64,000 bases of DNA from Candidatus Micrarchaeota archaeon (GCA_016932815.1 JAFGCC010000015.1:1402-65401), one strand, 5' to 3'; counted from the stretch's first letter, positions 2,884 to 30,239 are shown. The notes: generated from the sequence alone by a model not told the origin. Numbers and translations: made by a program.

Positions 2884-5130
2884 GTGGTGCCAATCGCCCA
2901 AAAGCCCAGGGAGCCGGGGCACTCAAAGCCCCCCACCCCACAACGGAAACAATTCCCAAAAGTGCGGCCCCTAGACGAATCCAATCCCATAAACAGGAAC
3001 CCCCGCCTGCTAAGCCACAGCGAGAAGAAGGCGTTCTACATCCAGGAATGCACTTACGAGGCGCACAGGAACGAGTGCCACCTTACCATGAGCTACCTCG
3101 AATTGCCGGAAGTGGCGGATGCCCTAAACCGCGCAACCCTTGAGCAGCTAATAGACCTCCTAGGATGCTTAGAGGTGCTAAAAGACGACAACCTCGCCCA
3201 CCTCATAGTTGCCGCATTCGAAGAATACGTTGACCGCAGGATTCTCTGGTACCCCTTTGTTGCAAAAGACGTTGCCCCTTATGTCGCAAACGACGGAATG
3301 ACAACCCTCTTATACATGGAATCGGACGAGAAATTCCGCTCGTATGTGGAGCGCTTCGAAAAGCACGCAGTAACCCTGCTCGAAGCCGAAACCAGGCTTG
3401 GCCTTAGTGCGATGCTGAGGATGTTTTCCGGCCGGCCGCTTTTTATCTCACCTTCACCCACTTCGGGGTTCTCGACAACCCCGGATGGGGCAGTAAACCT
3501 CCCCCAGGTTTACATGGCGCATGATGACAAAACCGCAAACCTAGAAGGGTACAAGCGCTCAAGCCTGCATGAGCAGTCCCACCACAAATACAATTCCTTT
3601 AGGGTTAACCTGCACCCGGACGTTTTCGATTATGCGGCAATCGGCCTAGAATTCGTGCGCATGGGAGAAGACGGCAAAATCCTAATCATAAAGAAAGAGG
3701 AAAAGGAATACGAAGTAAGCAAGACCGAGCACATAGTGGCCCTCTGCGAAAAGCCCGGGCTCCTAAAGCACCTCTGGAACGTCCTCGATGACCGCAGGGT
3801 GGACACCCAGCACACTTCAAGCTATCCCGGCCACGCCCCACTATACGAGCGCGACCACGAGCGGATTCTCGCTTCCGATATCCGCAAGGAAATAACCGAC
3901 GATGCTGCGGGCATGCACGAAGCCTTCCTGCAGGTAATCCTCTGCGGAAAGACGAAAAGCCCCATCCCGCCCGAAGTCAACAAGAAGCTGGAGCCCGTAT
4001 GGGAGCTTGCAGGCAGGCAGAACCTCAACGCCCCGGATGCAACAGACTGCTTCCATATCGCAATCCAGATGTGCAAATATTTCCCAGATGATATCCCAGA
4101 AAACCAGGAATACAAGGGCGGCTCCGGGACCAAGACCACCGACGTGTCCGATGGGCAGACGGTAATAGAGGCGCCTCCCGAAGTAGGGGGCAAGAACGAT
4201 GAGGGAGAGCCCAAGCCCAAACCCAAGCCCGGAGATGGCAATGAGGGCAAGCCCTCAAAGGATTTCAAGTACGATGCCAACACTCCCGGAGGAAAAATCC
4301 GCGGAGGCTGGCAGGTAAAGGAAGTGCCCCCGAAATCCTGGGAGCCGGTTTCGGTTCCCCCAAGGATTTCTTCTGCCATAAACCGCGTCTTCCGCTTATT
4401 CAGGAAAGATGAGAATGCACTAATGCGCCCACTCGATTCCGGGGACCCGGACATAGAGTTGCTTGAAGAGCACAACAGGATGGAGGAAGCGGGGATAATC
4501 CTGCCTCCCGACTATTATTCGGGTGTGGACCACACAAGCCGCAGCGTATGGCTAACCCTCCTAGTAGACCTCTCAGGAAGCATGGGCGAAGCCACGGACA
4601 AAGAGAGCAAGCTCGGCCGCGCCCTCTCAGCCGCAAAGGGAATAGAAGACGGCGCCGCCATGCTCAAAGACGATGTTCTTACCTTAGGCTTTGGGGGGCA
4701 CAACCCAACCGAAATATGCATAGTCGGCTGCCCTGGAAAGCCAATCCGCGCACCCATCGGAGTCACAGGCTCCACCCCACTTGGAGGCGCAATAAGGCAC
4801 GCGCACGCGCGCACAGAAGAAGCGCGCAGGGCAAAGGCCAAGAAGGTTGCCCACATGATTGTTTTGACCGATGGCCAGCCGAACGTGTGCCCAGGCGATG
4901 ACCCCACCTACGATTCAATGAAGGCGGTCTCCGATTCGCGCAAGAGCGGAATCCCGGTATTCGGCATAATATTTGTGGGCAACGAGGAAGAGGAGGCACG
5001 GTACAGGGAAACCTACAACAAGATTTTCGGCTTCGGCAACTACGTTGTGCTCCGCGATGCGGAATCGCTTGCGCGCATCCTAAAGAAATACTACCAGAAG
5101 AACTTGCTTTTGCAGGGGGAAGTTCCATGA
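2884..5130 (+). CDS. VWA-domain protein with an N-terminal HExxH motif (DUF2201-like putative metallopeptidase plus VWA); MoxR partner
   Basis: 748 aa from GTG 2884; an alternative start is ATG 3088 (MSYLELPEV). HExxH is LHEQSHH at 3568-3582. The middle linker is low-complexity and Pro/Lys/Gly-rich (GEPKPKPKPGDGNEGKP). The C-terminal VWA domain has MIDAS residues: LLVDLSGSMG (DxSxS at 4567-4581), TGSTPLGGAI and MIVLTDGQPN. Its stop overlaps the start of the first HEAT gene (ATGA at 5127-5130). Confidence 0.8.
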   Translation: MVPIAQKPREPGHSKPPTPQRKQFPKVRPLDESNPINRNPRLLSHSEKKAFYIQECTYEAHRNECHLTMSYLELPEVADALNRATLEQLIDLLGCLEVLKDDNLAHLIVAAFEEYVDRRILWYPFVAKDVAPYVANDGMTTLLYMESDEKFRSYVERFEKHAVTLLEAETRLGLSAMLRMFSGRPLFISPSPTSGFSTTPDGAVNLPQVYMAHDDKTANLEGYKRSSLHEQSHHKYNSFRVNLHPDVFDYAAIGLEFVRMGEDGKILIIKKEEKEYEVSKTEHIVALCEKPGLLKHLWNVLDDRRVDTQHTSSYPGHAPLYERDHERILASDIRKEITDDAAGMHEAFLQVILCGKTKSPIPPEVNKKLEPVWELAGRQNLNAPDATDCFHIAIQMCKYFPDDIPENQEYKGGSGTKTTDVSDGQTVIEAPPEVGGKNDEGEPKPKPKPGDGNEGKPSKDFKYDANTPGGKIRGGWQVKEVPPKSWEPVSVPPRISSAINRVFRLFRKDENALMRPLDSGDPDIELLEEHNRMEEAGIILPPDYYSGVDHTSRSVWLTLLVDLSGSMGEATDKESKLGRALSAAKGIEDGAAMLKDDVLTLGFGGHNPTEICIVGCPGKPIRAPIGVTGSTPLGGAIRHAHARTEEARRAKAKKVAHMIVLTDGQPNVCPGDDPTYDSMKAVSDSRKSGIPVFGIIFVGNEEEEARYRETYNKIFGFGNYVVLRDAESLARILKKYYQKNLLLQGEVP

Positions 5131-5813
5131 AGAACCCCATTTCGTATTTCAGGGAGTTGCTCCTCTCTTTCAGGCTGAAGGTGCTAGAGCGCGACCTGAT
5201 GCTGGCAGATGCAGGATACCAAATGCCTGGCTCCCGGATAACAAAGCAGATAAATTCCATAGGTGCCCCTGCAATTGAACTGCTCTCAAGGCGCCTAAAG
5301 AGCAAAGAGAAAATAACGCGGGGCAACGCATCATTCTTTTTAGGCAAAATCTTCAATCCGCTTGCCGTGCCGGCTTTCATTGATGCATTGAATCCGGAAG
5401 ACAGCGAAGTGCGGATTTCCGTTGCGGTTTCCCTGATGGTGCGGGATGATGCGCGTGCCGTGCGCCCGCTAATAATCTCCGCTATATATGACTGCGACAA
5501 AAAAGTCAGGCAATGGTCCAGGGCAGCACTTGAGAGGACTACGCCTTCGGGCCCTGGGGATTTGCGCTTCCTCCAAAAACACATCCGGATTTATGCAGGG
5601 GATGAGGGGCAGCCTGCGGATGCGGTACGGCGCGAATTAAACGAACTTGGGAAGCTCTATGTTTTCATGGCTGCCATGCTCACAGACAAAGGCAGGCAGG
5701 AATACGAGGGGATGCGCAAGCCCCCGCGCACTTTCAGGAGGCGCCATAATCAGGCGGGCCGCCATTCTTCGGCACTAAAAATGAAGGCGGCAATCGGAGG
5801 TGCGCGAGCATGA
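5127..5813 (+). CDS. HEAT-repeat paralog 1 of 12 (short form, MKNP-type N-terminus)
   Basis: 228 aa. HEAT/PBS-lyase-like repeats include AVPAFIDALNPEDSEVRISVAVSL and AVRPLIISAIYDCDKKVRQWSRAAL. The shared C-terminal module is GDLRFLQKHI...MRKPPRTFRRR...LKMKAAIGGARA. ATGA overlaps occur at both ends. Confidence 0.85.
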   Translation: MKNPISYFRELLLSFRLKVLERDLMLADAGYQMPGSRITKQINSIGAPAIELLSRRLKSKEKITRGNASFFLGKIFNPLAVPAFIDALNPEDSEVRISVAVSLMVRDDARAVRPLIISAIYDCDKKVRQWSRAALERTTPSGPGDLRFLQKHIRIYAGDEGQPADAVRRELNELGKLYVFMAAMLTDKGRQEYEGMRKPPRTFRRRHNQAGRHSSALKMKAAIGGARA

Positions 5814-7333
5814 TGAATCCCCTAACTGCGCTAAAGATCCGCCGTTTTATCGGGGAGTTCGTTCAGGATAAGGAGCACGCGGAAATCGCAATCGAAGGCC
5901 TGGCACTAATAGGGGAGCCCGCAATCCCCGCACTCCTCAACGCGATTGAAACCGGCGACCACTCGCTAAAGGCCCACTCCATGCGGGCGCTTGGGGAAAT
6001 GGGCAGTTCCGCAGTGTCCGCCGTCCCCGCCCTGCTCAAGGAAGCAAACGACAAGGAGAGCGAAGAGAGGTACAATGCGATAGAAGCCCTTGGGAAAATA
6101 GGAAGCCCTTTGGCATTGGATACGCTTTCTGCCGCGCTAAAGGAAGGGAACTCGCGTATAATAACCAAAGCCGCTGCCCATGCACTGCAGAACATGGGCG
6201 CTTGCGCATCCAATCACCTACTTCCAATAGCCCTAAGTGAAGAATATGCGGCAGGGGAAGCCGGGAAGCTGGCAGCAGAAAGCCTCAGGGACGCAAGAGA
6301 TTCGTCCCTTGCCCCAAAACTCATAGGCGCAATGGAGAGCCACAATCCGCATGTCCGCGCAAACGCCGCCAAAGCCCTTGGGGGAATGGATTTCCCAACC
6401 GTGCCCCTTGCACTCGCCGTTGTGCTAAAAGACGAATCGCCAATAGTCAGGGCGGAAGCGGCAGCGGCATTTGGGGAATTGAGGGTTCCCCCTCCGGAAA
6501 TCGCCCCATTGATTACCGCCCTAAATGACCCTGTTGCCAAAGTGCGCAAAAACGCTGCCTGGGCCTTGGGAGAATTAGGCGATTCCCGTGCAGACAGCCC
6601 GCTTATTGGCGCCCTCAAAGACGAGGACGCGGAAGTAGTGCTCGCTTGCTGCGATGCTTTGGCGAAGCTAGTGAGCAGTAAGGCAGTGCCGCATCTATCA
6701 AAACTGCTAAATGGCGCAAACACGAAGTTCAGGGATGACGCAGCGTACGCGCTAAAAGAAATCGGGGAGCCTGCTGCCAAAACGTTCGTTGCGGCCCTAA
6801 AGGACGGCAATGAGGAATTGAGGGCAATATCTGCGGAGGCACTTGGGAAGATAGGCTGCCATTATGGGCTTTCTGCCCTGGTCAATTCCCTTTATGATGA
6901 TAGCCCCAAAGTGAGGGCCGCAGCAGCAGAAGCATTGGGGAAAATAAACTCGGTTAATTCCTTTGGGAAAAAAGCGAATTCCGCAATACCGAGGCTAATA
7001 GACTTGCTGCTTGATGGGGATGAAGATGTAGTAGTCCATTCCGCACACACCCTCTCCGGGCTGGTTCCGGAAAACGTGCAGCAGCTGCATTCGCTGCGCA
7101 AAGCGATGATTATAATGAGTAAAACCAGGGATTGGAACGGGGAGAAAAAGGGCGAGATGCATTTCTTTGCGCAGATTTACCGGCGATGGGCAGGTCGCCT
7201 CGCAGGAACGAGCGCGCAAGAGCACAAAGGGATGCAGGCACCTCCTGCGAGGTTCAGGAAGCTTCCGGGCAAACCCGGAATGAACAGCGCAGCAGGAGCG
7301 AGGAAGCTTGCAATCGGAGGCGCAAAGAGATGA
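5810..7333 (+). CDS. HEAT-repeat paralog 2 of 12 (long form)
   Basis: 507 aa. It contains many repeats of the type AVPALLKEANDKESEERYNAIEALGKIGSP and DESPIVRAEAAAAFGEL. The tail is QQLHSLRKAM...IYRRWAGRL...HKGMQAPPARFRKLPGKPGMNSAAGARKLAIGGAKR. It is full-length similar to paralog 5. Confidence 0.88.
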   Translation: MMNPLTALKIRRFIGEFVQDKEHAEIAIEGLALIGEPAIPALLNAIETGDHSLKAHSMRALGEMGSSAVSAVPALLKEANDKESEERYNAIEALGKIGSPLALDTLSAALKEGNSRIITKAAAHALQNMGACASNHLLPIALSEEYAAGEAGKLAAESLRDARDSSLAPKLIGAMESHNPHVRANAAKALGGMDFPTVPLALAVVLKDESPIVRAEAAAAFGELRVPPPEIAPLITALNDPVAKVRKNAAWALGELGDSRADSPLIGALKDEDAEVVLACCDALAKLVSSKAVPHLSKLLNGANTKFRDDAAYALKEIGEPAAKTFVAALKDGNEELRAISAEALGKIGCHYGLSALVNSLYDDSPKVRAAAAEALGKINSVNSFGKKANSAIPRLIDLLLDGDEDVVVHSAHTLSGLVPENVQQLHSLRKAMIIMSKTRDWNGEKKGEMHFFAQIYRRWAGRLAGTSAQEHKGMQAPPARFRKLPGKPGMNSAAGARKLAIGGAKR

Positions 7334-8505
7334 GTGGGGAGGAGCAGTTTGACAAGCTGGTTTCAGAACTAAACTCCGGGGACCTAATAAAGGCAGTGCT
7401 TGCAGCACACAGGCTCTCCGACCTAAAAGACGAGCGGGCAATACCTCATCTTATCTGTGCGATAATGGGGGGAAACAGTATGCTGCACACGGATGCAGCC
7501 CGTGCCCTAGGAACATTCGGCAAGCCCGCAATCGCTATGCTAGCCGAAATTCTCGAAGACCATGATGCCAGGGCAGCCCATGAAGCCGCAAAAGCCCTAG
7601 TGGAAATTGGGAACCGCGAATCGCTTCCCGCCCTATGCAAAATCGCTCTGGGAAACTGGGACCCGGCAATTAGGATACCGGCTACCCATGTCCTTGGGGA
7701 GATTAGGGACATCTCCGCAGTACCGACCCTTTTTGCGATAATGGACCTAGAAAGGGAAAGGGAGGGAAGGCCCGCAATAACAATGCGCGATGTGGAACTA
7801 GGCGAGCAAAGCCAAACCGCGCTCAATTCCCTGACACTAATTGCAAACGACCATCCCTATGAACTAGCGGCATACCTGGGGAAAGCCGAAACCTCATTTG
7901 AGAACAAAAAAAGCATACTCCCTCTCTTGGGAACCTACTGCAGGAAGGCTCCAAAGGAACTCCTAGGCTGCCTTGCAAATAATGATAAGGGCTTCAAGCT
8001 AATTGCCGCAAATTCAATTTTGGCAATTGCGGATCCTTCTTCGCTTGATTCTATGCTTGAGCTATTTGAGGCGCACAAGGAAGGAAAAGAAAGGGACGAC
8101 CTGCGCCTGCTTAATGTGTCAGCGCATTTTGTTGGGCGCATAAAAGGCCTGCAAGCATTCTCGTATTTCGCAGGGCACCTGGATAAACCCGGCTGCACTT
8201 TCAAGAATTCCATATTGGCGGGCATATCCGAATTCGACCCCTCGCCATCAGACCTTAGGCCGCTCCAGCGTGAGATAACGAGGCTCCTGTCCGTAGATGG
8301 AGAAGGGAGGGAGGGTGCGCGCAGGGACGCTTGGGATATGGAGCGCATATATTCAAAGTGGCTCTCCCGCCTTAAGTTGAAATGCAACCTCGAACATACC
8401 GGTTTGCAGGAACCGCCAAGAAGGTTCAGGACCCCTCCAAAGGCGCTTAGGAGGCACAATTTTGCGGAGCAGAGGAAACTTGCAATAGGAGGCGCAGGAA
8501 GATGA
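7330..8505 (+). CDS. HEAT-repeat paralog 3 of 12
   Basis: 391 aa, counting from ATG 7330 (MSGEEQFDKLVSELNSGD). That ATG overlaps the stop of paralog 2 (ATGA) and lies 9 nt after a GGAGG. The track ORF start at 7132 is read-through of the upstream tail in another frame. The tail is SDLRPLQREI...IYSKWLSRL...HTGLQEPPRRFRTPPKALRRHNFAEQRKLAIGGAGR. Confidence 0.85.
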   Translation: MSGEEQFDKLVSELNSGDLIKAVLAAHRLSDLKDERAIPHLICAIMGGNSMLHTDAARALGTFGKPAIAMLAEILEDHDARAAHEAAKALVEIGNRESLPALCKIALGNWDPAIRIPATHVLGEIRDISAVPTLFAIMDLEREREGRPAITMRDVELGEQSQTALNSLTLIANDHPYELAAYLGKAETSFENKKSILPLLGTYCRKAPKELLGCLANNDKGFKLIAANSILAIADPSSLDSMLELFEAHKEGKERDDLRLLNVSAHFVGRIKGLQAFSYFAGHLDKPGCTFKNSILAGISEFDPSPSDLRPLQREITRLLSVDGEGREGARRDAWDMERIYSKWLSRLKLKCNLEHTGLQEPPRRFRTPPKALRRHNFAEQRKLAIGGAGR

Positions 8506-9230
8506 AAAACCCCCTGCTCACCCTAAGGATTCATTCTCTTATGCGCAGCCTCCACCGCGAAGGCAATATCGAGCAGCAGATAAATTCGTTATCCGAAATA
8601 GGCGAGCCGGCAGCCCCTTATCTGGTCAGGGCGCTCGGGGACTCGGGAAGATTGGGAGAGAACGCGGTTCGCATATTCCTTGCCATGGGAGAGCCCGCAC
8701 TTCCGCATCTTGGCGAAGCCCTAAAAAGCGAAAAATCCGAAATCCGCTATAATGCGATTCGCGCCTTAGTAAAAATTGGGATTCCGGCAATCCCGCATTT
8801 AATCCATGCAAGCTGCCGCGGTCCATCCATAGGTGCGCGCGCAGATGCTGCGGATGCGCTAGTGGGAATGGGCGAAGCGGCCCTCCCGCAACTTCTTGCT
8901 TCTTTGGAAGATAGCTGGCTCGCAAGGGAAATTCTACCTGGGAGGGTGCTAAAAGACATAGAACCTTCCTCTCCCAACAGCCTGCGCCTGCTTGGAAACT
9001 CCATCCGTTTCTTAAAAGGGGAGCAGCTCAAAAAGAGGGCCGGGCAGCCGGATTTGGATTCCCTCATGGAAGTATATTCCAATTGGGTTTCCCAGCTTGG
9101 AAAGAAAGCAGAGGTGGAACATAGAACGTTGCAGCGGCCTCCCCCAAGGTTCAGGAATCCCATAGGCAGGAAGGCAAGGAACAATTCGGCAGGGAAAATG
9201 AAAGCCGCAATAGGAGGCGCAAAGCCATGA
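8502..9230 (+). CDS. HEAT-repeat paralog 4 of 12 (short form, MKNP-type N-terminus)
   Basis: 242 aa. It begins MKNPLLTLRIHSLMRSL...QINSLSEIGEPAAPYLVRAL, resembling paralog 1. The tail is NSLRLLGNSI...VYSNWVSQL...HRTLQRPPPRFRNPIGRKARNNSAGKMKAAIGGAKP. Confidence 0.87.
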   Translation: MKNPLLTLRIHSLMRSLHREGNIEQQINSLSEIGEPAAPYLVRALGDSGRLGENAVRIFLAMGEPALPHLGEALKSEKSEIRYNAIRALVKIGIPAIPHLIHASCRGPSIGARADAADALVGMGEAALPQLLASLEDSWLAREILPGRVLKDIEPSSPNSLRLLGNSIRFLKGEQLKKRAGQPDLDSLMEVYSNWVSQLGKKAEVEHRTLQRPPPRFRNPIGRKARNNSAGKMKAAIGGAKP

Positions 9231-9250
9231 GCGAAGAAGAAAGGATAGGG
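9138..9250 (+). repeat. Junction repeat copy A (tail of paralog 4 plus start of paralog 5)
   Basis: cctcccccaaggttcaggaatcccataggcaggaaggcaaggaacaattcggcagggaaaatgaaagccgcaataggaggcgcaaagccATGagcgaagaagaaaggatagg aligns without gaps to 10670-10782. By eye there are about 15 mismatches in about 113 nt. Confidence 0.8.
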
Positions 9251-10762: not shown

Positions 10763-10782
10763 ATGAAGAAGAGAGAATAGGC
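10670..10782 (+). repeat. Junction repeat copy B (tail of paralog 5 plus start of paralog 6)
   Basis: This is the nucleotide-level counterpart of 9138-9250. It has the same PPPRFRNP...ARNNSAG...AAIGG coding, the same GGAGG and the same M-x-EEERIG start. Confidence 0.8.
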
Positions 10783-12318
10783 AGGTGGATGAACAAGCCC
10801 CTCCCCGAAGATGCGCAGCGCAGGCTGGAAGAAACAAAGGAACTATCAGGGCTTGGGGAATCCGCAATCCCGCAACTCCTTGAACTCGCCAAGGACAAGT
10901 ACTACAAGGTGAGGCAATATGCAATCCACGCCATCTCCGAAATCGGGGGTGAACCTGCGGTTTCCGCCCTGCTCAAACTGCTAGATGGAGCGGACAGTTG
11001 TTCCAAGGGAGATATAATAATGGCGCTTGGGGCAACAAAGGAGCCTGCCGCCGTGCCTGCAATCCATGCTGCAATGGCCAATGTTTATGACTGGGTAAAG
11101 AAAAACGCAGTTTGGGCGCTAGAGAGGATGGGGGATGTGGCTGCAAAGGAGCTCCTTCCCATCCTGGAAAATGGAACCAACGGGGAGAGGATTAATGCTG
11201 CAGTTGCAATCGGGAAAACCAGGGGCACAATAGCGCTTCCCGCATTGCTCAGGGCTCTAAGGGATGGGGGCAGGTTTGTTGGGAGCAATGCTGCAATTGC
11301 GCTTGGGCAACTCGGTGACAAGAGGGCAACCCCGCACCTCCTTGCGCAGATGGAGCGCAAGGATTCTGAGAACATAAGAAACTGGTGCGCGCACGCCCTA
11401 GGGGAAATAAACGATTCTTCTGCAATCCCCAGGATGGTCACCCTGATGCATCTTGCTTCAAAGAAGAATGCCACACTGGACTTTGCAAAGGAGCTCTCAT
11501 TTGCGCTAATGAAAATGGGGCTTCCCCCTGTTTCCTGCATCCCGGAGCTATTGGAAATAATAGCCATGAACTGCATTACGGTGAATGCGGAACGCGAGAG
11601 GGTAAGCGAGTACATAAAGTGGGCGCTCCCGCACATGGGGGAACCCGCAGTCCCGTTACTCACTTCCGCACTGTTCCATCCAAGGAGGCCCATTGTGGTG
11701 CACGCATCAGAAGCCCTCTCCCAGATGCATAAATGCACCAATGTAAAAAAACAATACGGAGAAGGCTCGCCCGCAACCGCTTCGCTCTCAGAAATAGCAA
11801 CAAATCAGGAAAACCCGGTTGAAGTGCGAAACGAAGCAATCGGGATTCTCCAGAAAATAGGGGATGAACGGGCGCTTCCCGCAATCCTTTCACTAATAGA
11901 AGACCCGGAAAAATCCATACGCAGGAATGCCGCAACCGCCATGTGCGGGTTCAGGGCGGACAGCGCGACCCTCTCGGTCCTAATCGAAGCGGCCCTGGAT
12001 ACCGAGGCGCAGGTCAGGCTCGAGGCAGTTACTACTCTATCCAGGATGCCCCCAGGAACCCTGCGGGACTTGAAGCCCCTAGCCTGTGCAATCCGCGCCA
12101 CAAAGAATGCGCAGGAAGAAGGAGGGGACAGGGGCAGGGAAATGAATTCGCTCAGGGAAACATACAATAGGTGGTTTTCCCAGCTTTCTGAGAGGGCGGA
12201 GAGGAGGCATCATAATGTGCCCCAGCCTCCTCCACGGTTTAGGGCACCCAAAAAGAATCCCGGAAGAGGCAGCATCGCAGCCCAAAACAAAATCGTAGTT
12301 GGAGGGAAAATGCAATGA
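10759..12318 (+). CDS. HEAT-repeat paralog 6 of 12
   Basis: 519 aa from ATG 10759 (MNEEERIGRWMNKPLPED), which overlaps the stop of paralog 5. The track start at 10555 is rejected. The central part is collinear with paralog 7 (AIPRMVTLMHLASKKNATLDFAKEL...YIKWALPHMGEPAVPLLTSAL). The tail is GTLRDLKPLA...TYNRWFSQL...PQPPPRFRAPKKNPGRGSIAAQNKIVVGGKMQ. Confidence 0.86.
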   Translation: MNEEERIGRWMNKPLPEDAQRRLEETKELSGLGESAIPQLLELAKDKYYKVRQYAIHAISEIGGEPAVSALLKLLDGADSCSKGDIIMALGATKEPAAVPAIHAAMANVYDWVKKNAVWALERMGDVAAKELLPILENGTNGERINAAVAIGKTRGTIALPALLRALRDGGRFVGSNAAIALGQLGDKRATPHLLAQMERKDSENIRNWCAHALGEINDSSAIPRMVTLMHLASKKNATLDFAKELSFALMKMGLPPVSCIPELLEIIAMNCITVNAERERVSEYIKWALPHMGEPAVPLLTSALFHPRRPIVVHASEALSQMHKCTNVKKQYGEGSPATASLSEIATNQENPVEVRNEAIGILQKIGDERALPAILSLIEDPEKSIRRNAATAMCGFRADSATLSVLIEAALDTEAQVRLEAVTTLSRMPPGTLRDLKPLACAIRATKNAQEEGGDRGREMNSLRETYNRWFSQLSERAERRHHNVPQPPPRFRAPKKNPGRGSIAAQNKIVVGGKMQ

Positions 12319-13646
12319 TGAATCCTTTTCTTTATCTGAGGATACGGAGGCTTTTCAACGATTCCACACACGAAGCCGTATTCAGGGGAAAATGGATAAT
12401 GTCCCGGGATTACATAATTAGGGAGTTGAAGGAGATTGGCCCCCCCGCAGTCAAGGTAATCTCCAAGAAGCTACGGAGCAGGAACAGCGGGCGGAGGCTC
12501 CATGCAGCCTATTTGCTGGGGGAATTTGGCAGCCCCCTTGCGGTTCCTCCGCTAATTGAAGCACTCAATTCCGATGATTGTGAATTGAGTTGCGCAGCCG
12601 CAATCGCACTTGGCAAAATAAGGGATAAGAGGGCAACTCCGGAACTCCTCAACCAGTTTGAGAGGGGGGGCCTGCAGCTAAGCCTCGATTGTGCCCATGC
12701 CTTGGGGGAGATAGGCGATGCTTCCGCAATCCCAAGGATGGTTGGTTTGATGCGGTTTGCATCAAAGAGGGAATCTGCTGCGGATTTTGCCAATCAGCTT
12801 GCAGAAGCCCTAAAGAAACTCGGCCCCCCTCCGGCTTCCTGCGTGCCCACTTTGCTTGAACTAGGCGCCTACGGGAATTTCTCCTGCCTTTCTTCTAAAG
12901 AAGTGGCGGCATACGTGAGATGGGCGCTCCCCAGGATGGAGGAATCCGCGATTCCCATGCTGGTATCGGCATTGGCACAGGAGAATTTCCCCCTCCCGGA
13001 GGGGCAGGCATACTGTGCCAGGGAGGCGCTGCTGGGGAAGGGAGCCTCCGCGGTTTCCGAGTTGGTTTTGGCAGTGGAAAATAAGGGGAATCCCCAGATC
13101 CTAAGGGAAGATTCCATCCGCATCCTAGGGAGGATAAAAGACCCTTCTGCAGTGGGCGCATTGGCCTCCGCATTGAAAGAGGAGAGGATGTCCACACGGA
13201 TGGCTGCAGCCAAAGCACTCGGAAAGATAGGGGACTCTTCTGCAATCTCCCCATTGCTTGAGTGCATAAAGTGCGAGAGGGGAGGCGACCTCCGGGATGC
13301 GCTTGCGGAATTGCTCCAAGCGCCCTCAGATGGCGGGCAGCAGGTCAGGCTTGCGGCAGCCGCTTCTCTCTCCATGATGCACCCAAGAAGCCCCCGGGAT
13401 TTGCTTTTATTGCACAAGGCGATAGTTGCGGTAACCGGATTGGTGAGGGGGGAGGATGCAAAAGCGGACGGAGGCCCTTCGTTAAGGAAAATTTATGAAA
13501 AGTGGGCAATGCAGCTTAGCCAACTTGCAGCAGAAAAGCACAAAAACAGCAAATTGCAAATTCCACCTAGGCTAAGAAAGCCCCCCGCGCATATGAGGCG
13601 CAGGGAGGATATTTGCAGGAGAATGGTTGCAGGGAGGAGAGCATGA
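12315..13646 (+). CDS. HEAT-repeat paralog 7 of 12 (MMNP-type N-terminus)
   Basis: 443 aa. It begins MMNPFLYLRIRRLFND. HEAT repeats include AVPPLIEALNSDDCELSCAAAIALGKIRD. The tail is PRDLLLLHKAI...IYEKWAMQL...LQIPPRLRKPPAHMRRREDICRRMVAGRRA. Confidence 0.86.
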   Translation: MMNPFLYLRIRRLFNDSTHEAVFRGKWIMSRDYIIRELKEIGPPAVKVISKKLRSRNSGRRLHAAYLLGEFGSPLAVPPLIEALNSDDCELSCAAAIALGKIRDKRATPELLNQFERGGLQLSLDCAHALGEIGDASAIPRMVGLMRFASKRESAADFANQLAEALKKLGPPPASCVPTLLELGAYGNFSCLSSKEVAAYVRWALPRMEESAIPMLVSALAQENFPLPEGQAYCAREALLGKGASAVSELVLAVENKGNPQILREDSIRILGRIKDPSAVGALASALKEERMSTRMAAAKALGKIGDSSAISPLLECIKCERGGDLRDALAELLQAPSDGGQQVRLAAAASLSMMHPRSPRDLLLLHKAIVAVTGLVRGEDAKADGGPSLRKIYEKWAMQLSQLAAEKHKNSKLQIPPRLRKPPAHMRRREDICRRMVAGRRA

Positions 13647-14731
13647 GCACCCATACGGAAGTTAAGCAGCTTATTAGGGACCTAAAATCCAGCGATGCTA
13701 GCGTGAGCCTCCAGGCCCTGCACCGCTTCACTAAAATAACCGATGCAACCGCTGTTCCGGAACTGCTGCGCGCACTAAGAAGCGGAGACAAGCAGGTAAT
13801 GGATGCAGCGGGGCTTGGCCTAATAAGCATAGGAGAGCCCGCAGTTGCGCTTTTGGTTCGGGCGCTAAGGAAGGAAAAAAACTGGGGAGTCAAGTGCCAC
13901 TGTGCATATGCTTTGGGGGAAATAGGAGATGCCTATGCAACCAGGGCGCTTCTTTCTGCAATAAGGGGAAAGGACTTCCTTGTAAAGACCAACTGCCTAC
14001 AGGCACTAGGGAAAATAAGGGACCCTTCAGCATCTTCTGCGCTAGTTAGGTTGTTGGGCAACAAGAGGCTCCGGGAGGATGCCGCAAGGGTTCTGGGGGA
14101 AATCGGGGCGCCCGCAGCGCCTGAGCTTGCAAAGGCGCTAAAAAACAAGATAACAGGCTCCCGCGCAGCAAAAGTGCTCCTCAAAATCGGGGAGCCTTCG
14201 GTTCCCGCATTAATGAAAGCCCTGCAGGGGAGAAACGATTTGGCAAGGCGGCGCGCTGCAACCGTGCTAAGCGGAATCGGGGGAACTTCAACCGCCACCG
14301 CGCTAACAGACGCCCTAAGAAGCAGGTCCGAGAAGGCAAGAGTAGCCGCATCCCACGCACTAATCAAGGTCCAGGATGATAGGGCAACGCCGCACCTCAT
14401 TTGCGCCCTTGGGGATTCTAGCGCAAAGGTCAGGAAGAACGCGGCCATAGCAATTGAAAAAGCGCAACCAAACAGCATGGACGATTTGCATAATCTCCGC
14501 AGGCAGATAAAATCGCTTGTAAAAGAGCACGGGAAAGATTGCCCCAAATGGATGATAGACTCTCTTGGCGCAACCTACAAGCGCTGGTCTGCGCATCTAG
14601 GAAGAAAGTGCAGGAAGGCCCACAAGGACGGAGGGCTCCTCCCCCCGCCCAAGAGGTTCCGCAATCCCCCCGCCCCCCAGAAGCACTATAACCTGTTTTG
14701 CAGGCCAAAGAGGATGTGGAGGGCGCACTGA
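13643..14731 (+). CDS. HEAT-repeat paralog 8 of 12
   Basis: 362 aa from ATG 13643 (MSTHTEVKQLIRDLKSSD), which overlaps the stop of paralog 7; the track start 13613 is rejected. Repeats include AVPELLRALRSGDKQVMDAAGLGL and ATPHLICALGDSSAKVRKNAAIAI. The tail is MDDLHNLRRQI...TYKRWSAHL...LLPPPKRFRNPPAPQKHYN.... Confidence 0.86.
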   Translation: MSTHTEVKQLIRDLKSSDASVSLQALHRFTKITDATAVPELLRALRSGDKQVMDAAGLGLISIGEPAVALLVRALRKEKNWGVKCHCAYALGEIGDAYATRALLSAIRGKDFLVKTNCLQALGKIRDPSASSALVRLLGNKRLREDAARVLGEIGAPAAPELAKALKNKITGSRAAKVLLKIGEPSVPALMKALQGRNDLARRRAATVLSGIGGTSTATALTDALRSRSEKARVAASHALIKVQDDRATPHLICALGDSSAKVRKNAAIAIEKAQPNSMDDLHNLRRQIKSLVKEHGKDCPKWMIDSLGATYKRWSAHLGRKCRKAHKDGGLLPPPKRFRNPPAPQKHYNLFCRPKRMWRAH

Positions 14732-15606
14732 TGGGAAGGGGGGAAATAGCCTCGCTTGTTGCGCAACTGGGGGCCGGAGAATCTTCTCTTAGGGCAAAAG
14801 CCGCAGAAAGCCTGGGGGAGCTAAGGGCGGTTTCCGCAATCCCGCACTTGTTTGCGGCAATGAGGGAGGACAACGTTTCATTAACGCGCGCAGCAGGGGA
14901 TGCTCTCTCCTTGATGGGCAAGCCCGCCGTGCCGCAATTAATCGGGGGGCTCTCAGACGAGTTTTGGGCAGTCCGCTACCATTGCGCCTGTGCATTAGGG
15001 GAGCTGCGGGATGCAGCAGCCGTGGAGCAGCTCATAGCGGCATTGGGCGATGGGAGTATGCTAGGTAGGGGGGCTGCCGCAAAAGCCCTTGGGCAGATAA
15101 AAGATGCGCGTGCGATTCCCCACTTAATCAACCTCCTCTCGGATGAGCAGATTGGAAGGGAGGCTGCGGTTTCCCTATTCAGGATGGGCCGCCCCGCAAT
15201 GCGCGAACTAATAAACTATGCCAACATTGCTTCTTGGCCCCCGGAAAAAACCCCCTGCCCCGTTGCAACGAGGGCGATTGTCTTTGCGCTGAAAAAAGGC
15301 CCCCCGGAATGGAGGCGGGATGGGGAATACGATGCGGTTTTCGGGAGGAAGCCCGGGGGCGCAGCGGAACTCATCCTGCTGCACCGGGTTCTGCGGTGCA
15401 CAGAGGAATTGCGGAAACTGGGCAAGGCAAGCGAAGAGGAGGTAAGTTCGCTAAGGGAAACCTATTCGCGGTGGTATGAGTTCCTCCGCGGCAGGTGCGA
15501 AGGCGAGCACGCTTCCATGAACCTCCCCCCAAAGAGGGCACCAATCCGCAGGAAGAGGAGGCAGAATCCCATGCAGGCTAGGATGGCAACCGGGGGGAGA
15601 AAATGA
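14731..15606 (+). CDS. HEAT-repeat paralog 9 of 12
   Basis: 291 aa from ATG 14731 (MGRGEIASLVAQLGAGE), a 1-nt overlap with the upstream stop (TGATG); the track start 14698 is rejected. Repeats include AIPHLFAAMREDNVSLTRAAGDAL and AIPHLINLLSDEQIGREAAVSL. The tail is AELILLHRVL...TYSRWYEFL...HASMNLPPKRAPIRRKRRQNPMQARMATGGRK. Confidence 0.85.
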   Translation: MGRGEIASLVAQLGAGESSLRAKAAESLGELRAVSAIPHLFAAMREDNVSLTRAAGDALSLMGKPAVPQLIGGLSDEFWAVRYHCACALGELRDAAAVEQLIAALGDGSMLGRGAAAKALGQIKDARAIPHLINLLSDEQIGREAAVSLFRMGRPAMRELINYANIASWPPEKTPCPVATRAIVFALKKGPPEWRRDGEYDAVFGRKPGGAAELILLHRVLRCTEELRKLGKASEEEVSSLRETYSRWYEFLRGRCEGEHASMNLPPKRAPIRRKRRQNPMQARMATGGRK

Positions 15607-16643
15607 GCAACGGAAAGATTGAGCTTCTCCTTGAGAACCTGCAATCGAGGAATTCCAGTTCCCGCTCTTCTGCTGCGTACCTGCTTGGCCAGCGCGCTTC
15701 GGAAATAGCCGGGCCCCAGAGGGATTCCGCCGTTTCCCTGCTCATTGGGGCATTTGGGGATGAGCCTTCAATGTTGAGGGCGAATGCGGCGGAAACTTTG
15801 GGAAAACTAAAGGCCACTTCCGCGATATCCGCGCTAACTGGGATTCTGGATGATGCGGATGAGGCCGTAATGAAGAAAGCTGCAGAGGCGCTATGCATAA
15901 TGAAAGCGCGCGAAGCTGCGCCCAAACTATTGGAAATCGTGCTATCCTCAAAGGCCGTGCTCAAGATGCACAGGGGCCATGCTGCCGCAGTTGCCCTAAG
16001 AGGGATTAGGGAGCCTTCATGCGCGCCCAACCTGGTTCTTGCGTTGAGGAGCCAGAATGCCCAGGTGCGCGCCCACGCCGCAATTGCGCTTGGGGGAACA
16101 AACGTTCCGGGCGTAAATGAAGCTTTAATCTCCGCACTCAAAGACCTGGACTGGATGGTAAGGTTCAATTCCGCATGCTCGCTTGGGGAGCTTAAAAACG
16201 GCAAATCCCTGCGCCCTTTAATACGGACGCTCAATACGGATGAAGATGGCATCGTAAAATCCGGTGCCGCAAGGTCACTTGGAAAGCTAAAAAAGCCCTC
16301 CGCTGTGCCGCACCTCTTATCCTGCATAAGGAAGGGGGATGAGAGGCTAATCCGCGAAGCTGCGCAGGCTCTCTCAGAAATAAGGCCAAGGGGCATTGAT
16401 GATTTGAGGCTGCTTGCAAATGCCATACGCGAAATAAAAAAGCGCACAATACAGGAGCCCGTGCTGCGCGAGGGGCTTGGCTGCCTTTGGGAAACCTACT
16501 CCAAATGGGCAGCCCGGCTGAGCAGGATGCGCTCCCGCGGGAATTCGGGAATAAGGCCCCCGCCCCGCTTTAGGAGTTGCCCTGCAAAGTTTGCGCGCAA
16601 GCCGCCAAGGCAGGGGAAGATTAAGATGGAGGCAGGGCAATGA
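15603..16643 (+). CDS. HEAT-repeat paralog 10 of 12
   Basis: 346 aa. It begins MSNGKIELLLENLQSRN. Repeats include AISALTGILDDADEAVMKKAAEAL and AVPHLLSCIRKGDERLIREAAQAL. The tail is IDDLRLLANAI...TYSKWAARL...GIRPPPRFRSCPAKFARKPPRQGKIKMEAGQ. Confidence 0.86.
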   Translation: MSNGKIELLLENLQSRNSSSRSSAAYLLGQRASEIAGPQRDSAVSLLIGAFGDEPSMLRANAAETLGKLKATSAISALTGILDDADEAVMKKAAEALCIMKAREAAPKLLEIVLSSKAVLKMHRGHAAAVALRGIREPSCAPNLVLALRSQNAQVRAHAAIALGGTNVPGVNEALISALKDLDWMVRFNSACSLGELKNGKSLRPLIRTLNTDEDGIVKSGAARSLGKLKKPSAVPHLLSCIRKGDERLIREAAQALSEIRPRGIDDLRLLANAIREIKKRTIQEPVLREGLGCLWETYSKWAARLSRMRSRGNSGIRPPPRFRSCPAKFARKPPRQGKIKMEAGQ

Positions 16644-17473
16644 GCGGCCATCCCCTTGAGCATAGGATACGGCGCCTCCTAGCTTCCATGGGCGATGAGG
16701 AAGAAGCGGATGCCGCACTCTCCCAACTAGTTAAGCTGGGAAAGGATGCACTCCCATGCCTCATCCCAATTCTGGGGCAGGATGAATCATGGGAATCCAG
16801 GCGGGATAGCGCAATAGCGCTTGGCGCAATAGGGGATGCAGGCGCAATCGATGCATTGGTTTGCGCAATGGGCGATGAAGATGGCGATGTTAGCTACCAT
16901 GCGGGAGAAGCCCTTGCAAAAATCGGGGAGGCTGCCCTCTCCCCCTTGTTTGCGGCACTCGAAAGCGGGAAGCCGAAAACCAGGAGGAGGGCGGCACACG
17001 CGCTAAGCGGGCTTGGGGATGCGCGGGTGCCCCCCAAGCTCATTGGCATGCTCGCAGACAGCAACCCAATTGTCAGGAAAGCTGCCGCCTATTCACTAGG
17101 CAAAAGGAAGGAGGAATCGGCAATCTTCCCTTTGATTTCCACCCTGCTTGATACCGATTCTTCTGTGAGGAAAGAATGCTGCGATGCACTGCGCGCAATA
17201 GGCCCGCGGGATGCGAGGGATTTGCGCTTTTTGCAGAGGACACTCAATTGCTTGCGGCAAATGCAGGAGAAAGGAGAGGTGCAGGCACAGGATTTGCCTT
17301 CATTGGAAGCGCTGTATGAGAGCTGGGCACACAAGCTGGGAGCAGCATGCAAGGAGAACCACGAGGGATTAGCGGGAATCCCGCCTAGGACAACGAATCG
17401 TCCCCCATTTAGAAGGAATGGGCTGCACAATGGAAAAAGGGCTGCGGTATTGGCGCTGCGCACAAGAAGGTGA
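16640..17473 (+). CDS. HEAT-repeat paralog 11 of 12
   Basis: 277 aa. It begins MSGHPLEHRIRRLLASMGDEEE. Repeats include AIDALVCAMGDEDGDVSYHAGEALAKIG and VPPKLIGMLADSNPIVRKAAAYSLG. The tail is ARDLRFLQRTL...LYESWAHKL...HEGLAGIPPRTTNRPPFRRNGLHNGKRAAVLALRTRR. Confidence 0.85.
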   Translation: MSGHPLEHRIRRLLASMGDEEEADAALSQLVKLGKDALPCLIPILGQDESWESRRDSAIALGAIGDAGAIDALVCAMGDEDGDVSYHAGEALAKIGEAALSPLFAALESGKPKTRRRAAHALSGLGDARVPPKLIGMLADSNPIVRKAAAYSLGKRKEESAIFPLISTLLDTDSSVRKECCDALRAIGPRDARDLRFLQRTLNCLRQMQEKGEVQAQDLPSLEALYESWAHKLGAACKENHEGLAGIPPRTTNRPPFRRNGLHNGKRAAVLALRTRR

Positions 17474-17477
17474 AATA

Positions 17478-18419
17478 ATGGGCGAAGAAGGGAAAATAAG
17501 GGAACTAATTGCAAAATTCGCTTCTCCGGACCCAAGGGAAGCGGTGGATGCGATAGGCGAACTAAAGAAAATTGGTTTGCAAGCAATCCCAATCCTCCGC
17601 GAAGCATCCGCGTATCCCTCAGATGCAATAAGGCACTACGCGATGCTCACCCTAAGGGAGCTAAAGGATGAGCGCTCAATCCCCATAATGGCCCATGCAC
17701 TTGGAGACCTTAACTCCAATGTGGCGGATTGCGCCTCGGAAGCCCTTGCCGGATTCGGGAAAAAATCCATTCCCGCGGTGCTTGAGGTGCTAGGTTGCGA
17801 TGATATTAGGGCCATGAATTGCGCTATAAGTACGCTGGCAAAAATAGGGGAGCCCGCAGTTTCACCTCTCTGCGAAGCATATTCGGATAACCCAGAACCC
17901 ACTTTCCGGATTCGCATTGTCTGCACCCTTGGATCAATTGCGCACGTTTCTGCGGTGCCAATGCTCCTCTCAATCCTGAGCGAGAATATGGGTTGCCCCG
18001 CATCCACTCCGGGCGAAAGCCTGGCATTGCATGCGATATCCTCCCTTGGGGAAATCGGGGACGCATCCGCCCTCCCATCGCTGTTTTCGCTGCGCCTCTC
18101 AAGCAATCTGAAATTGAGGGTTGCTTCTGCGGATTCGCTTCGGGGAATAATCCCAACGAGCCCGCGGGATTTGCGCCGCCTGCATGCGGAACTGCTGCGC
18201 ACCCTCAGGATTGAGAAGGGCAGGGAAGTGAAGAACGAATCGGACTCGCTCTATATAGCTTATCATGGATGGTCGTCCCGCCTTGGGATAAAATGCGCAC
18301 AAGCCCATGAGGAGATGCGCGCACCTCCCCCCAGGCTTGGGAGAAGGAATTCCTGCCCAAGGCGCAGGAATGCAGCAGCTAGAAGAAATGTGCTGTTTTT
18401 GGGAAAAAATAGGGTTTAA
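17478..18419 (+). CDS. HEAT-repeat paralog 12 of 12 (last gene of the array)
   Basis: 313 aa from ATG 17478 (MGEEGKIRELIAKFASPD), 4 nt after the upstream stop and preceded by AAGGTGA; the track start 17418 is rejected. The tail is PRDLRRLHAEL...AYHGWSSRL...HEEMRAPPPRLGRRNSCPRRRNAAARRNVLFLGKNRV. It lacks the GGAGG-encoded GG seen in upstream paralogs. Confidence 0.85.
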   Translation: MGEEGKIRELIAKFASPDPREAVDAIGELKKIGLQAIPILREASAYPSDAIRHYAMLTLRELKDERSIPIMAHALGDLNSNVADCASEALAGFGKKSIPAVLEVLGCDDIRAMNCAISTLAKIGEPAVSPLCEAYSDNPEPTFRIRIVCTLGSIAHVSAVPMLLSILSENMGCPASTPGESLALHAISSLGEIGDASALPSLFSLRLSSNLKLRVASADSLRGIIPTSPRDLRRLHAELLRTLRIEKGREVKNESDSLYIAYHGWSSRLGIKCAQAHEEMRAPPPRLGRRNSCPRRRNAAARRNVLFLGKNRV

Positions 18420-18486
18420 AAGCATTACTTAGCATAAAGTCGGATACCTATTCTATAGGCAAACATATTTTTGGAGTGTGAGAACT

Positions 18487-30214: not shown

Positions 30215-30239
30215 TCCCCTTCCTTCTTTTTTGATTTTT

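Follow-up and report, generated by a model that had tools for sequence, protein, structure and literature searches.

Gene organization of the HEAT array

The window, i.e. the full 64 kb stretch of DNA analysed, belongs to an uncultured archaeon and shows 12 tandem HEAT genes on the + strand, located in one operon with the two genes that precede them. The array occupies positions 5127-18419, and these limits, already given in the initial annotation, are correct after five of its open reading frames were trimmed to the ATG overlapping or abutting the stop of the previous gene. The first gene of the operon (1761..2876, + strand) encodes a 371 aa protein, predicted to be a MoxR-class AAA+ ATPase of the CbbQ/NorQ type. 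It matches the Pfam family AAA_5 (PF07728, E=3e-14), its Walker A (GPTGPGKS) and Walker B (LFLDELH) motifs can be read in the sequence, and its best PDB relatives are Midasin (top), CbbQ (6l1q, 5c3c) and NorQ (9qh4, 9qhd). The second gene (2884..5130, + strand), whose start codon is uncertain, encodes a 748 aa VWA partner protein with an N-terminal domain, a disordered linker of Gly, Pro, Lys and acidic residues, and a C-terminal VWA domain (Pfam VWA) with a MIDAS. In the alignment of four homologues, with identities of 45-90%, the MIDAS (DxSxS...T...D) is complete and its residues D562, S564, S566, T631 and D663 are invariant, as is the N-terminal H229-E230-x-x-H233-H234 (HEQSHH). The profile of this protein matches the VWA domain of NorD (9qhd, E=1.6e-10), in an alignment that takes in only profile positions 623-731, all of them belonging to the C-terminal VWA region. 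The N-terminal domain matches no Pfam family, and no Pfam peptidase even at E<=5. The AF2 model of this protein has a pLDDT of 45.6, too low to be used in judging its fold. PADLOC gave no system-specific match for the VWA protein or for H4, only weak P-loop matches for the ATPase and only generic HEAT models for H5.

The HEAT genes, H1 to H12, are all on the + strand, and each shows matches to HEAT_2 and, at its 3' end, to the profile of the C-terminal module described below, whose coordinates follow those of each gene. H1 (228 aa) is located at 5127..5813 (module at 5544-5810, 90.7 bits), H2 (507 aa) at 5810..7333 (7064-7330), H3 (391 aa) at 7330..8505 (8236-8502), H4 (242 aa) at 8502..9230 (8961-9227) and H5 (511 aa) at 9227..10762 (10490-10759). 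They are followed by H6 (519 aa) at 10759..12318 (12049-12315), H7 (443 aa) at 12315..13646 (13377-13643), H8 (362 aa) at 13643..14731 (14462-14728) and H9 (291 aa) at 14731..15606 (15337-15603). The last three are H10 (346 aa) at 15603..16643 (16374-16640), H11 (277 aa) at 16640..17473 (17204-17470) and H12 (313 aa), which ends the array, at 17478..18419 (18150-18416). A gap of 58 nt separates H12 from a thermosome gene. The stop of the VWA gene overlaps the start of H1 (ATGA) and, in total, 13 consecutive junctions of the operon overlap or almost abut; the genes of the operon are therefore translationally coupled.

The repeat cores are ordinary members of the HEAT and PBS-lyase HEAT-like class (Pfam PF13646, PF03130), with HEAT_2 matches in 12 of 12 proteins at 35-225 bits, against a cutoff of 27.7, and E values down to 1e-67. 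They share these cores with the prokaryotic PBS-lyase/HEAT-like repeat proteins (HEAT_2, HEAT_PBS), the natural family of alphaRep, but HEAT proteins outside this small clade are without the C-terminal hairpin and tail found here.

A C-terminal module common to the 12 proteins

All 12 HEAT proteins end in one collinear module of ~89 aa. The three ordered elements described in the initial annotation are present in each of them, at a nearly fixed distance from the C-terminus: element 1 at 80-87 residues, element 2 at 48-54 and the PP motif at 26-31. The strings quoted for them were all found; the one quoted for element 1 of H6 (GTLRDLKPLA) is off by two residues, the aligned segment being RDLKPLACAI. 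Element 2, regarded as weak in the first paralog, is degenerate in H1 (LYVFMAAML). The MAFFT alignment of the last 89 aa is almost gap-free, with L8, L11, Y39, L46 and P61 invariant and P2, W42, P60 and R63 nearly so. The consensus of element 1 is P..s.DL..L...I and that of element 2 is sL...Y..W...L....H; the tail has a single motif at the protein level, (M/L)Q.PP(P)RFR.

The possibility that composition alone makes these ends similar, raised together with the module, was checked with leave-one-out HMMs. The 12 left-out tails score 42.6-90.3 bits (E 3e-15 to 4e-30) and the best of 500 composition-preserving shuffles reaches at most 12.8 bits, so the similarity greatly exceeds what composition would give. 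Over the whole 64 kb, scanned in six frames, there are exactly 12 significant matches, each at the 3' end of a HEAT gene.

The module is covered by no Pfam or NCBIfam family and by no PDB entry, in agreement with the view that it is not a named domain. Searches of the full-length array proteins against Pfam-A and NCBIfam reported only HEAT-type repeat families and none over the last ~89 residues, and the PDB profile search with the module alignment gave only chance-level matches, headed by a four-helix bundle designed de novo (9ugr, E=4e-4). Among 1.84 billion representatives, only ~28 proteins match the module profile. In every one of them the module is at the extreme C-terminus, and those examined over their full length or assigned to a contig are all HEAT proteins.

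The module consists of two long helices followed by a disordered Pro/Arg-rich tail of 26-31 aa. In the AF2 model of H4, the helices span residues 158-177 and 182-208 (pLDDT 69-91, block means) and the coil residues 209-228 (pLDDT 53-67). The two helices probably close the solenoid as a hairpin. No confident docking of the tail onto the solenoid was found in this model. Both helices show an i, i+3/4, i+7 hydrophobic stripe, one per helix. The closest folds to H4 are alphaRep and armadillo repeats, including designed armadillo proteins whose crystal structures have (KR)n peptides in the groove. The net charge of the tail is +7 to +10, and that of the cores spans -16 to +20.

Conservation and recombination of the module

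The initial annotation contrasted a constant tail with diversified cores. This contrast does not hold: pairwise identity averages 32% for the module and 31% for the cores, and orthologues differ most in the final 30 aa of the protein (57-73% identity, versus 77-94% in the cores). What stays constant in the module is its position, its length, its charge and a few residues. Purifying selection on it is measurable, with dN/dS values of 0.14-0.29 for the module helices in the orthologue comparison. The codons of PPxRFR differ synonymously among the paralogs, and the motif is therefore constrained at the protein level; the most distant lineage (L007) shows h-P...basic in its place.

Some of the similarity among the tails stems from gene conversion, the final 90 nt of H4 and H5 being 88% identical. 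Most pairs of paralogs show no DNA-level similarity in the tail (20-40%). One relative (L001) has lost the body of H3, with the H2 body fused to the H3 tail, and also lacks the H5 body. Two deletions of whole genes, a fusion and a conversion tract map to tail-coding DNA, which acts as a recombination site where entire genes are deleted, fused and converted in frame. Tandem duplication would have passed the module to all the paralogs, and the size and content of the array vary among relatives, from three to at least 13 HEAT genes.

Shine-Dalgarno sequences embedded in the gene ends

The sequence GGAGG occurs at 9 of the 11 junctions between HEAT genes (expectation per 15-nt window, 0.046) and sits 5-10 nt 5' of each overlapping ATG. 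It is located at 7316-7320 in H2 (for H3), 8488-8492 in H3, 9213-9217 in H4, 10745-10749 in H5, 12301-12305 in H6, 13633-13637 in H7, 14718-14722 in H8 and 16628-16632 in H10; H9 shows GGGGGG at 15592-15597, and H11 AAGGTGA at 17467-17473, which includes its own stop. GGAGG is preserved in all three reading frames: it is in frame 1 in H7 (G-R) and H8 (W-R), and in frame 2 in H10 (M-E-A). H12 ends without GGAGG and without G-G, and retains the basic tail although no coupled gene lies downstream. The terminal 5-7 residues (...AIGGxKR) are mainly the translated GGAGG Shine-Dalgarno. The end of the basic tail reported for the 12 proteins is shaped by a nucleotide constraint. The embedded GGAGG drives re-initiation at the next gene across the 4-nt overlap. 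A Shine-Dalgarno inside the upstream coding sequence together with an ATGA overlap is a well-known coupling arrangement; the arrangement is the same in this array, where the gene ends come to mimic a protein motif. An encapsulin-type C-terminal cargo-loading peptide was considered for the terminal GG and rejected, the three-frame GGAGG explaining it; no encapsulin-like family was found among the subset of window open reading frames scanned with Pfam.

Linkage to the MoxR-VWA pair and comparison with known systems

A search of 5.8 billion clusters gave only three full-length homologues of the VWA partner, each in an AAA-VWA-HEAT locus whose HEAT genes bear the module, and in a fifth lineage the C-terminus of the VWA protein is directly followed by an H1-like module-bearing gene. 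In every lineage with sufficient contig reach (five), the arrays lie next to genes for a NorQ/CbbQ-like AAA+ ATPase and for a VWA protein of NorD type that has the invariant HExxH. The proposed tie between the module and the VWA/MoxR pair is upheld in this respect, genomic linkage favouring it without proving contact.

Among the closest known arrangements are those of NorQ/NorD, the FeB-insertion chaperone of cNOR, and CbbQ/CbbO, the Rubisco activase. They share with this locus an adjacent MoxR ATPase and a partner of ~750 aa with a C-terminal VWA domain and a complete MIDAS. However, the archaeal ATPase is ~100 aa longer than NorQ and CbbQ, no match of the partner, with its N-terminal HExxHH domain, to NorD or CbbO was found outside the VWA domain, and in place of a metalloenzyme the presumed clients are three to >13 HEAT paralogs of the same operon. 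There is no evident target for metal insertion.

In Rea1/Midasin the MIDAS docks the UBL domains of Ytm1 and Rsa4, so that different substrates share one docking domain, which is N-terminal and offers an acidic residue to the MIDAS, as MIDAS ligands normally do. The same logic of one docking domain for different substrates is proposed here, but with a C-terminal hairpin and a cationic tail, and the module has no invariant acidic residue: the D/E preceding L8, which looks like a helix N-cap, gives way to Q in H2 and to S in H4. The resemblance to Rea1/Midasin would be functional only, and no homology is implied.

The MoxR-vWA ternary conflict systems (Kaur et al. 2020, PMC7159879) also combine such a pair with rapidly diversifying components and HEAT/TPR arrays, and it was proposed that the vWA captures a peptide and the MoxR releases a client whose state is altered. 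They are bacterial, carry effector domains C-terminal to the vWA and have VMAP, iSTAND or FtsH as third component (PMC7159879), whereas here the VWA domain is itself C-terminal, the host is archaeal and the flanking genes are housekeeping ones. A ternary conflict system with VMAP, iSTAND or FtsH was rejected on account of the C-terminal VWA domain and of the other operon genes being HEAT only; none of these third components was found with the libraries used, which include no VMAP-specific profiles.

Possible functions of the module

Among the functions suggested in the initial annotation for the module, linkage favours one tied to the MoxR-VWA pair. Other roles have to be weighed against it. 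The tail, with a charge of about +8, might be a polyanion anchor that tethers the solenoids to nucleic acid (in chromatin, ribosomes or RNA), an acidic membrane or another surface, the MoxR-VWA pair only assembling or releasing the HEAT proteins without reading the module. The charge of the ~30 disordered residues is steady whatever that of the core, and length and composition are kept while the sequence drifts, as is typical of fuzzy electrostatic binding; this role is nevertheless unlikely, as it leaves the strict AAA-VWA linkage and the ordered, constrained PPxRFR unexplained, and no function related to nucleic acids was found for anything in the locus. It is quite unlikely that the module serves hetero-oligomerisation, with paralog hairpins forming bundles or tails occupying the concave groove of a neighbouring solenoid in a 12-protein scaffold. 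Coupling of the 12 paralogs hints at matched stoichiometry, and the hydrophobic stripes, the weak match to designed four-helix bundles and the (KR)n-binding armadillo proteins point the same way, but the hairpin itself would satisfy the single stripe of each helix, the variable number of genes does not suit a fixed complex and the H4 model docks no tail with confidence.

It is about as unlikely that the tail is a C-terminal propeptide, cut near H..G(M/L)Q|xPP by the VWA-fused HExxH domain in order to mature the solenoid or to free a cationic peptide. The invariance of H229, E230, H233 and H234 agrees with a protease, the best-conserved stretch of the tail is exactly at the helix/tail border, and some MoxR-vWA conflict systems have a zincin peptidase and precursors with a conserved C-terminal peptide (PMC7159879). 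Nevertheless, the HExxH domain gave no match to any peptidase profile and revealed no third zinc ligand, and a freed peptide should be conserved, whereas the final 30 aa are the fastest to evolve and in part code for a ribosome-binding site. Little probability is likewise left to the absence of any special shared interaction, the module being an ancestral C-terminal cap kept by descent and made uniform by conversion and by the ribosome-binding site. Module identity not exceeding that of the cores, the H4/H5 tract and a terminal motif accounted for by GGAGG all fit such a cap, but most pairs keep length, charge and PPxRFR with synonymous codons and without DNA similarity, H12 has its basic tail with no gene to couple, and selection on the module is purifying.

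We favour, tentatively and at somewhat less than an even chance, a module that acts as the common handle by which one MoxR AAA+/VWA(+HExxH) machine recognises every HEAT solenoid. Published work on NorQD shows that the target of such AAA/VWA pairs is a separate protein (PMC13036017). Since the NorQD AAA pore is already occupied by a finger of the VWA domain (PMC13036017), the tail is not expected to be threaded through it. The divergence of the tail between orthologues and the replacement of the motif in L007 weigh against a handle, and the co-location of the genes would also fit co-operating HEAT subunits that never dock through the module. The last ~89 residues form a true domain, as yet without a name, by which a very small family of archaeal HEAT-repeat proteins is defined. 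If they are a handle, the solenoid would be the variable part of these proteins and the hairpin and cationic tail the constant recognition element, read by a machine whose genes open the same translationally coupled operon.

Organization of the gene string

The region between positions 1761 and 18419 (+ strand) is a single tightly packed gene string containing a gene encoding a MoxR-class AAA_5 ATPase of 371 amino acids (1761-2876), a gene encoding a 748-amino acid protein with a C-terminal VWA domain (2884-5130) and twelve HEAT_2/HEAT_PBS genes, H1 to H12 (5127-18419). With five mechanical ORFs trimmed to an ATG that overlaps or abuts the preceding stop codon, ten junctions from the VWA gene to H11 are 4-nt ATGA overlaps, the H8/H9 overlap is 1 nt, and H11 and H12 are 4 nt apart. 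The flanks are housekeeping genes: glutamine synthetase upstream, thermosome and pyrD/pyrK downstream and, farther downstream, radA, primase, deoxyhypusine synthase, Pus10 and CTP synthase. The thermosome is closest to the Methanococcus and Thermococcus chaperonins, and together with an archaeal RNase P RNA (98 bits; 28528-28782, - strand) it identifies the host as an archaeon; this RNA and one tRNA (60532-60606, - strand) confirm an archaeal chromosome. Directly downstream of the thermosome gene are two ORFs on the + strand, of 242 (20304-21032) and 498 (21051-22547) amino acids, without a match in Pfam, NCBIfam or PADLOC. The gene at 30204-32924 (+ strand) encodes a 906-amino acid DHH-CID/DHHA1 (RecJ/GAN-like) protein split by a LAGLIDADG_3 domain, which is most likely an intein.

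The C-terminal module

All HEAT proteins of the array end in a module of about 89 residues, which is a real and rare domain formed by two long helices and a cationic tail. The strings quoted for it in the initial annotation were all found in the proteins at almost fixed distances from the C-terminus: 80-87 residues for element 1, 48-54 for element 2 and 26-31 for the PP motif; among the element-1 strings, only that of H6 had been displaced, by two residues. The alignment of the twelve C-termini is near gapless over the final 89 residues, and the similarity goes beyond composition: leave-one-out HMMs gave 42.6-90.3 bits for each left-out tail, and the best of 500 same-residue shuffles did not exceed 12.8 bits. 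A six-frame scan of the whole window with the module HMM gave exactly 12 significant matches, each at the end of one HEAT gene. In line with the initial annotation, which recognized no named domain here, Pfam, NCBIfam and PADLOC give HEAT-type families only for these proteins; a profile search of PDB sequences gave matches at chance level only, and querying a word index of proteins with the alignment of the module gave none. When 1.84 billion representative proteins were searched exhaustively with HMMER, 30 matches were obtained, about 28 of them convincing and several of them the window's own proteins. Every convincing match shows the module at the extreme C-terminus, and all those examined over their full length or assigned to a contig are HEAT proteins.

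The consensus of 39 non-redundant members is.P....DLR.L..aIr...(about 17 variable residues)...sL...Y..Was.L..ka..eH.glq.PPpRFRnPP...gR.n.A...k.a.GG... The AlphaFold2 model of H4, built with the paralog alignment (mean pLDDT 75), shows ordinary HEAT helices followed by two long helices and a coil. The first long helix (residues 158-177) bears L161 and L164 of element 1, and the second (182-208) bears Y192, W195, L199 and the conserved His; mean pLDDT in 10-residue blocks of these helices ranges from 69 to 91. Judging from the secondary structure, both helices would pack as a hairpin. The coil at 209-228, which includes PPPRFR, has a pLDDT of 53-67, and KMKAAIGG is modelled as a short helix of low confidence. 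A PDB fold search with this model returned generic HEAT and ARM repeats only.

Net charge is +7 to +10 over the final 30 residues of each paralog and ranges from -16 to +20 in the cores. The codons of PPxRFR vary synonymously (CCN for Pro; AGG, CGG, CGC or AGA for Arg; TTC or TTT for Phe), which places the constraint at the protein level and rules out a DNA-level motif. A PCNA PIP-box reading of Q.PPPRF was discarded because the hydrophobic positions do not match, and the Asp/Glu of element 1 as a ligand of the MIDAS, the metal site of the VWA domain, because it is not invariant and resembles a helix N-cap.

At the end of the second module helix, just before the PP motif, five of the twelve paralogs (H3 KLKCNLEH, H8 GRKCRKAH, H9 RGRCEGEH and H12 GIKCAQAH among them) and many relatives have a C-x3-H pair on one face of the helix; its His is present in 10 of the 12 paralogs. 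The two residues might serve as metal ligands, notable beside a machine resembling MoxR-VWA metal chaperones. At the other end, a subset of paralogs shows an N-terminal element, M-x-N-P-h-x-x-h-(K/R)-I-(R/H)-(R/S)-h, which is a helix in the H4 model and is located at window positions 5127, 5810, 8502 and 12315 (starts of H1, H2, H4 and H7), and at 5636 and 8822 of the related contigs L005 and L001, respectively; the remaining paralogs begin with M-x-x-E-E-(R/Q)-I.

Sequence conservation and selection

The idea of a constant tail on diversified cores is not borne out: mean pairwise identity among the twelve paralogs is 32% in the module versus 31% in the cores, the latter value being inflated by the repeat consensus. 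Comparison with orthologues in a 90%-identical relative gave 97.6% identity and a dN/dS of 0.02 for GlnA, 89% (0.17) for the AAA ATPase, 90% (0.12) for the VWA protein and 72-92% (0.20-0.34) for the HEAT genes, about ten times the dN/dS of GlnA. Within the HEAT orthologues the last 30 residues change fastest (57-73% identity, versus 77-94% in the cores and 63-92% in the two helices). The module is under purifying selection, and its constant features are its position, length and charge together with a few residues.

A ribosome-binding site within the module

Nine of the 11 HEAT-to-HEAT junctions show GGAGG 5-9 nt upstream of the next ATG, a motif expected 0.046 times per 15-nt window from the gene bodies; the other two have GGGGGG and AAGGTGA. 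GGAGG occurs in all three frames of the upstream gene: frame 0 encodes G-G (H1-H6), frame 1 W-R (H8) or G-R (H7), and frame 2 M-E-A (H10), while H9 obtains the same G-G through the GGGGGG variant. H12, without a coupled gene downstream, has neither GGAGG nor G-G. Relatives show the same pattern, and the R-V ending specific to contig L007 corresponds to AGG GTG. The module's end is shaped by translational coupling: the extreme end of the basic tail described in the initial annotation is a translated ribosome-binding site. Readings as an encapsulin-like cargo peptide or as a C-terminal GG signal of the ubiquitin/Pup type are ruled out, since the GG derives from a frame-independent GGAGG. That PPP and the basic tail act as a nascent-chain pause aiding re-initiation is unlikely: H12 has such a tail but no coupled gene, and the VWA gene is coupled but lacks one. 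For readers of sequence this is a warning: a conserved C-terminal peptide motif such as AIGG can be merely the ribosome-binding site of the next gene.

Linkage to the AAA-VWA pair

The module occurs solely in HEAT arrays associated with the AAA-VWA pair. Among 5.8 billion clusters, three full-length homologues of the VWA protein were identified (90%, 60% and 45% identity), and their contigs (L005, L006 and L007) each contain AAA, VWA and HEAT genes in that order; in L007, HEAT genes flank the pair on both sides. The module HMM matches every HEAT gene of L005 and L006 and two of the six complete ones of L007, the other four having a divergent form recognized by reading. L001, an 11-kb contig from the same metagenome as L005, contains solely ten tandem HEAT genes, with the module in all nine complete ones. 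In a fifth lineage (L009 and L010), the VWA C-terminus, ...LLVQGEVP*, is overlapped by an H1-like gene. Each remaining traceable member is on a short contig of overlapping HEAT genes. Two scans of GTDB species genomes, with the VWA protein or its alignment as query, found no relative; a scan of metagenomes contributed one duplicate of L007 and nothing else, and a scan of viral contigs returned no relative, so there is no sign that the DNA is viral.

Recombination and array dynamics

Several arrangements show the tail-coding DNA to be a recombination substrate that mediates array turnover. The H2 orthologue of L001 tracks window H2 until about 90 nt before the stop codon (24-28 of 30 nt identical); past that point it is the H3 tail with its downstream sequence (28-29 of 30 nt identical), the crossover being at the RFR-coding AGGTTCAGGA and the H3 body being absent. 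L001 H4/H5 is arranged likewise, with the H4 body joined to the H5 tail and the H5 body absent; the relevant region of L001 is 5030-7272. The window's own H4 and H5 (modules at 8961-9227 and 10490-10759) are 88% identical over their last 90 nt, versus about 25-48% for the proteins elsewhere, and this stretch is a conversion tract. In L006 (6716-8284), an in-frame fusion joins two adjacent HEAT genes right after PPARFG, and the 522-amino acid product has an internal hairpin without basic tail and a normal terminal module. N-termini are exchanged too, since the L001 H2 orthologue has the other N-terminus type.

Gene order in the 90%-identical relative differs from that of the window after H1, and at least six of its paralogs are without a close window counterpart (>50% identity). 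Across relatives, arrays comprise from 3 to more than 13 genes; L006 has just three HEAT genes between the VWA gene and the thermosome. The thermosome genes of the window (18478-20127) and L006 (9008-10348) are 93.5% identical, versus 60-62% for the AAA and VWA proteins; by this comparison the AAA-VWA-HEAT system evolves much faster than its surroundings, and the contrast may reflect such faster evolution or a replacement of the system.

The MoxR-VWA machine and possible roles of the module

Among proteins of solved structure, the ATPase is closest to Midasin, CbbQ and NorQ, and the VWA profile matches NorD (E=1.6e-10). The MIDAS residues D562, S564, S566, T631 and D663 are invariant among the VWA homologues, as is HEQSHH in the N-terminal domain, which matched no peptidase profile. 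The AF2 model of the VWA protein (pLDDT 45.6) was too poor for a fold search. The linker between the HExxH and VWA domains (window 4140-4300, residues ~420-471) is a disordered stretch enriched in Gly, Pro, Lys and acidic residues, in this protein and its homologues alike; across them it ranges from 52 to 96 amino acids and from -10 to +1 in net charge, and it is reminiscent of the acidic Pro-rich linker of ChlD/BchD. The acidic N-terminal domain (-11 to -17) might pair electrostatically with the +8 tails. In the cryo-EM structure of NorQD, a finger of the VWA domain fills the AAA pore and the pair acts on a separate target (PMC13036017). For MoxR-vWA systems, Kaur et al. proposed that the vWA captures a client peptide and that MoxR releases the client remodelled (PMC7159879).

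The module may be a common handle that lets a single MoxR-VWA machine recognize each HEAT paralog; we give this reading somewhat less than an even chance, beside the exclusive association of module and pair. A polyanion anchor, a role touched by the uniformly positive final 30 residues and by their rapid change among orthologues, is unlikely. Hetero-oligomerization of the paralogs, to which the shared helices and the variation in array size are both relevant, is quite improbable. A propeptide cut by the HExxH domain is similarly doubtful: some MoxR-vWA systems have zincin-processed precursors with conserved C-terminal peptides (Kaur et al., PMC7159879), and beside this stand the invariant HEQSHH and its lack of a peptidase profile match. 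The same low expectation applies to a mere inherited cap, with a module no more conserved than the cores on one side and purifying selection on the other.

Taking the common handle further, the array might be a recombination-shuffled repertoire of HEAT 'binders' plugged through a C-terminal adaptor into one MoxR-VWA-HExxH hub, an archaeal, chromosomally fixed counterpart of bacterial MoxR-vWA conflict/surveillance systems. This is a long shot, consistent with the reordered array and at least six unmatched paralogs in a relative with a 90%-identical VWA protein, and with arrays of 3 to >13 genes, the 60% versus 93.5% identities and a dN/dS about tenfold that of GlnA. In that case, the sensing of diverse targets (viral or misassembled proteins, for example) would fall to the solenoids, and their remodelling or cleavage to the hub.

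No paper was found in the literature on a MoxR-VWA operon with a HEAT paralog array, nor on this C-terminal module, and the locus is best called a known MoxR-VWA-plus-client theme with a new small domain. Its general impact is limited, as the clade is tiny and uncultured. The function is putative; the feature itself is solid and open to experiment, and there are lessons in what was found on the ribosome-binding site and on recombination. The locus shows how a tandem family may grow and shrink through in-frame recombination inside a common terminal module. Client choice by MoxR-VWA chaperones is poorly understood and, to our knowledge, few pairs have a known target, such as NorQD, CbbQO, RavA-ViaA and CobST. 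Here, a single MoxR-VWA pair is genetically locked to a whole client set with one short, portable C-terminal element; if this element is the recognition handle, its 89 transplantable or deletable residues would offer a direct experimental entry point.
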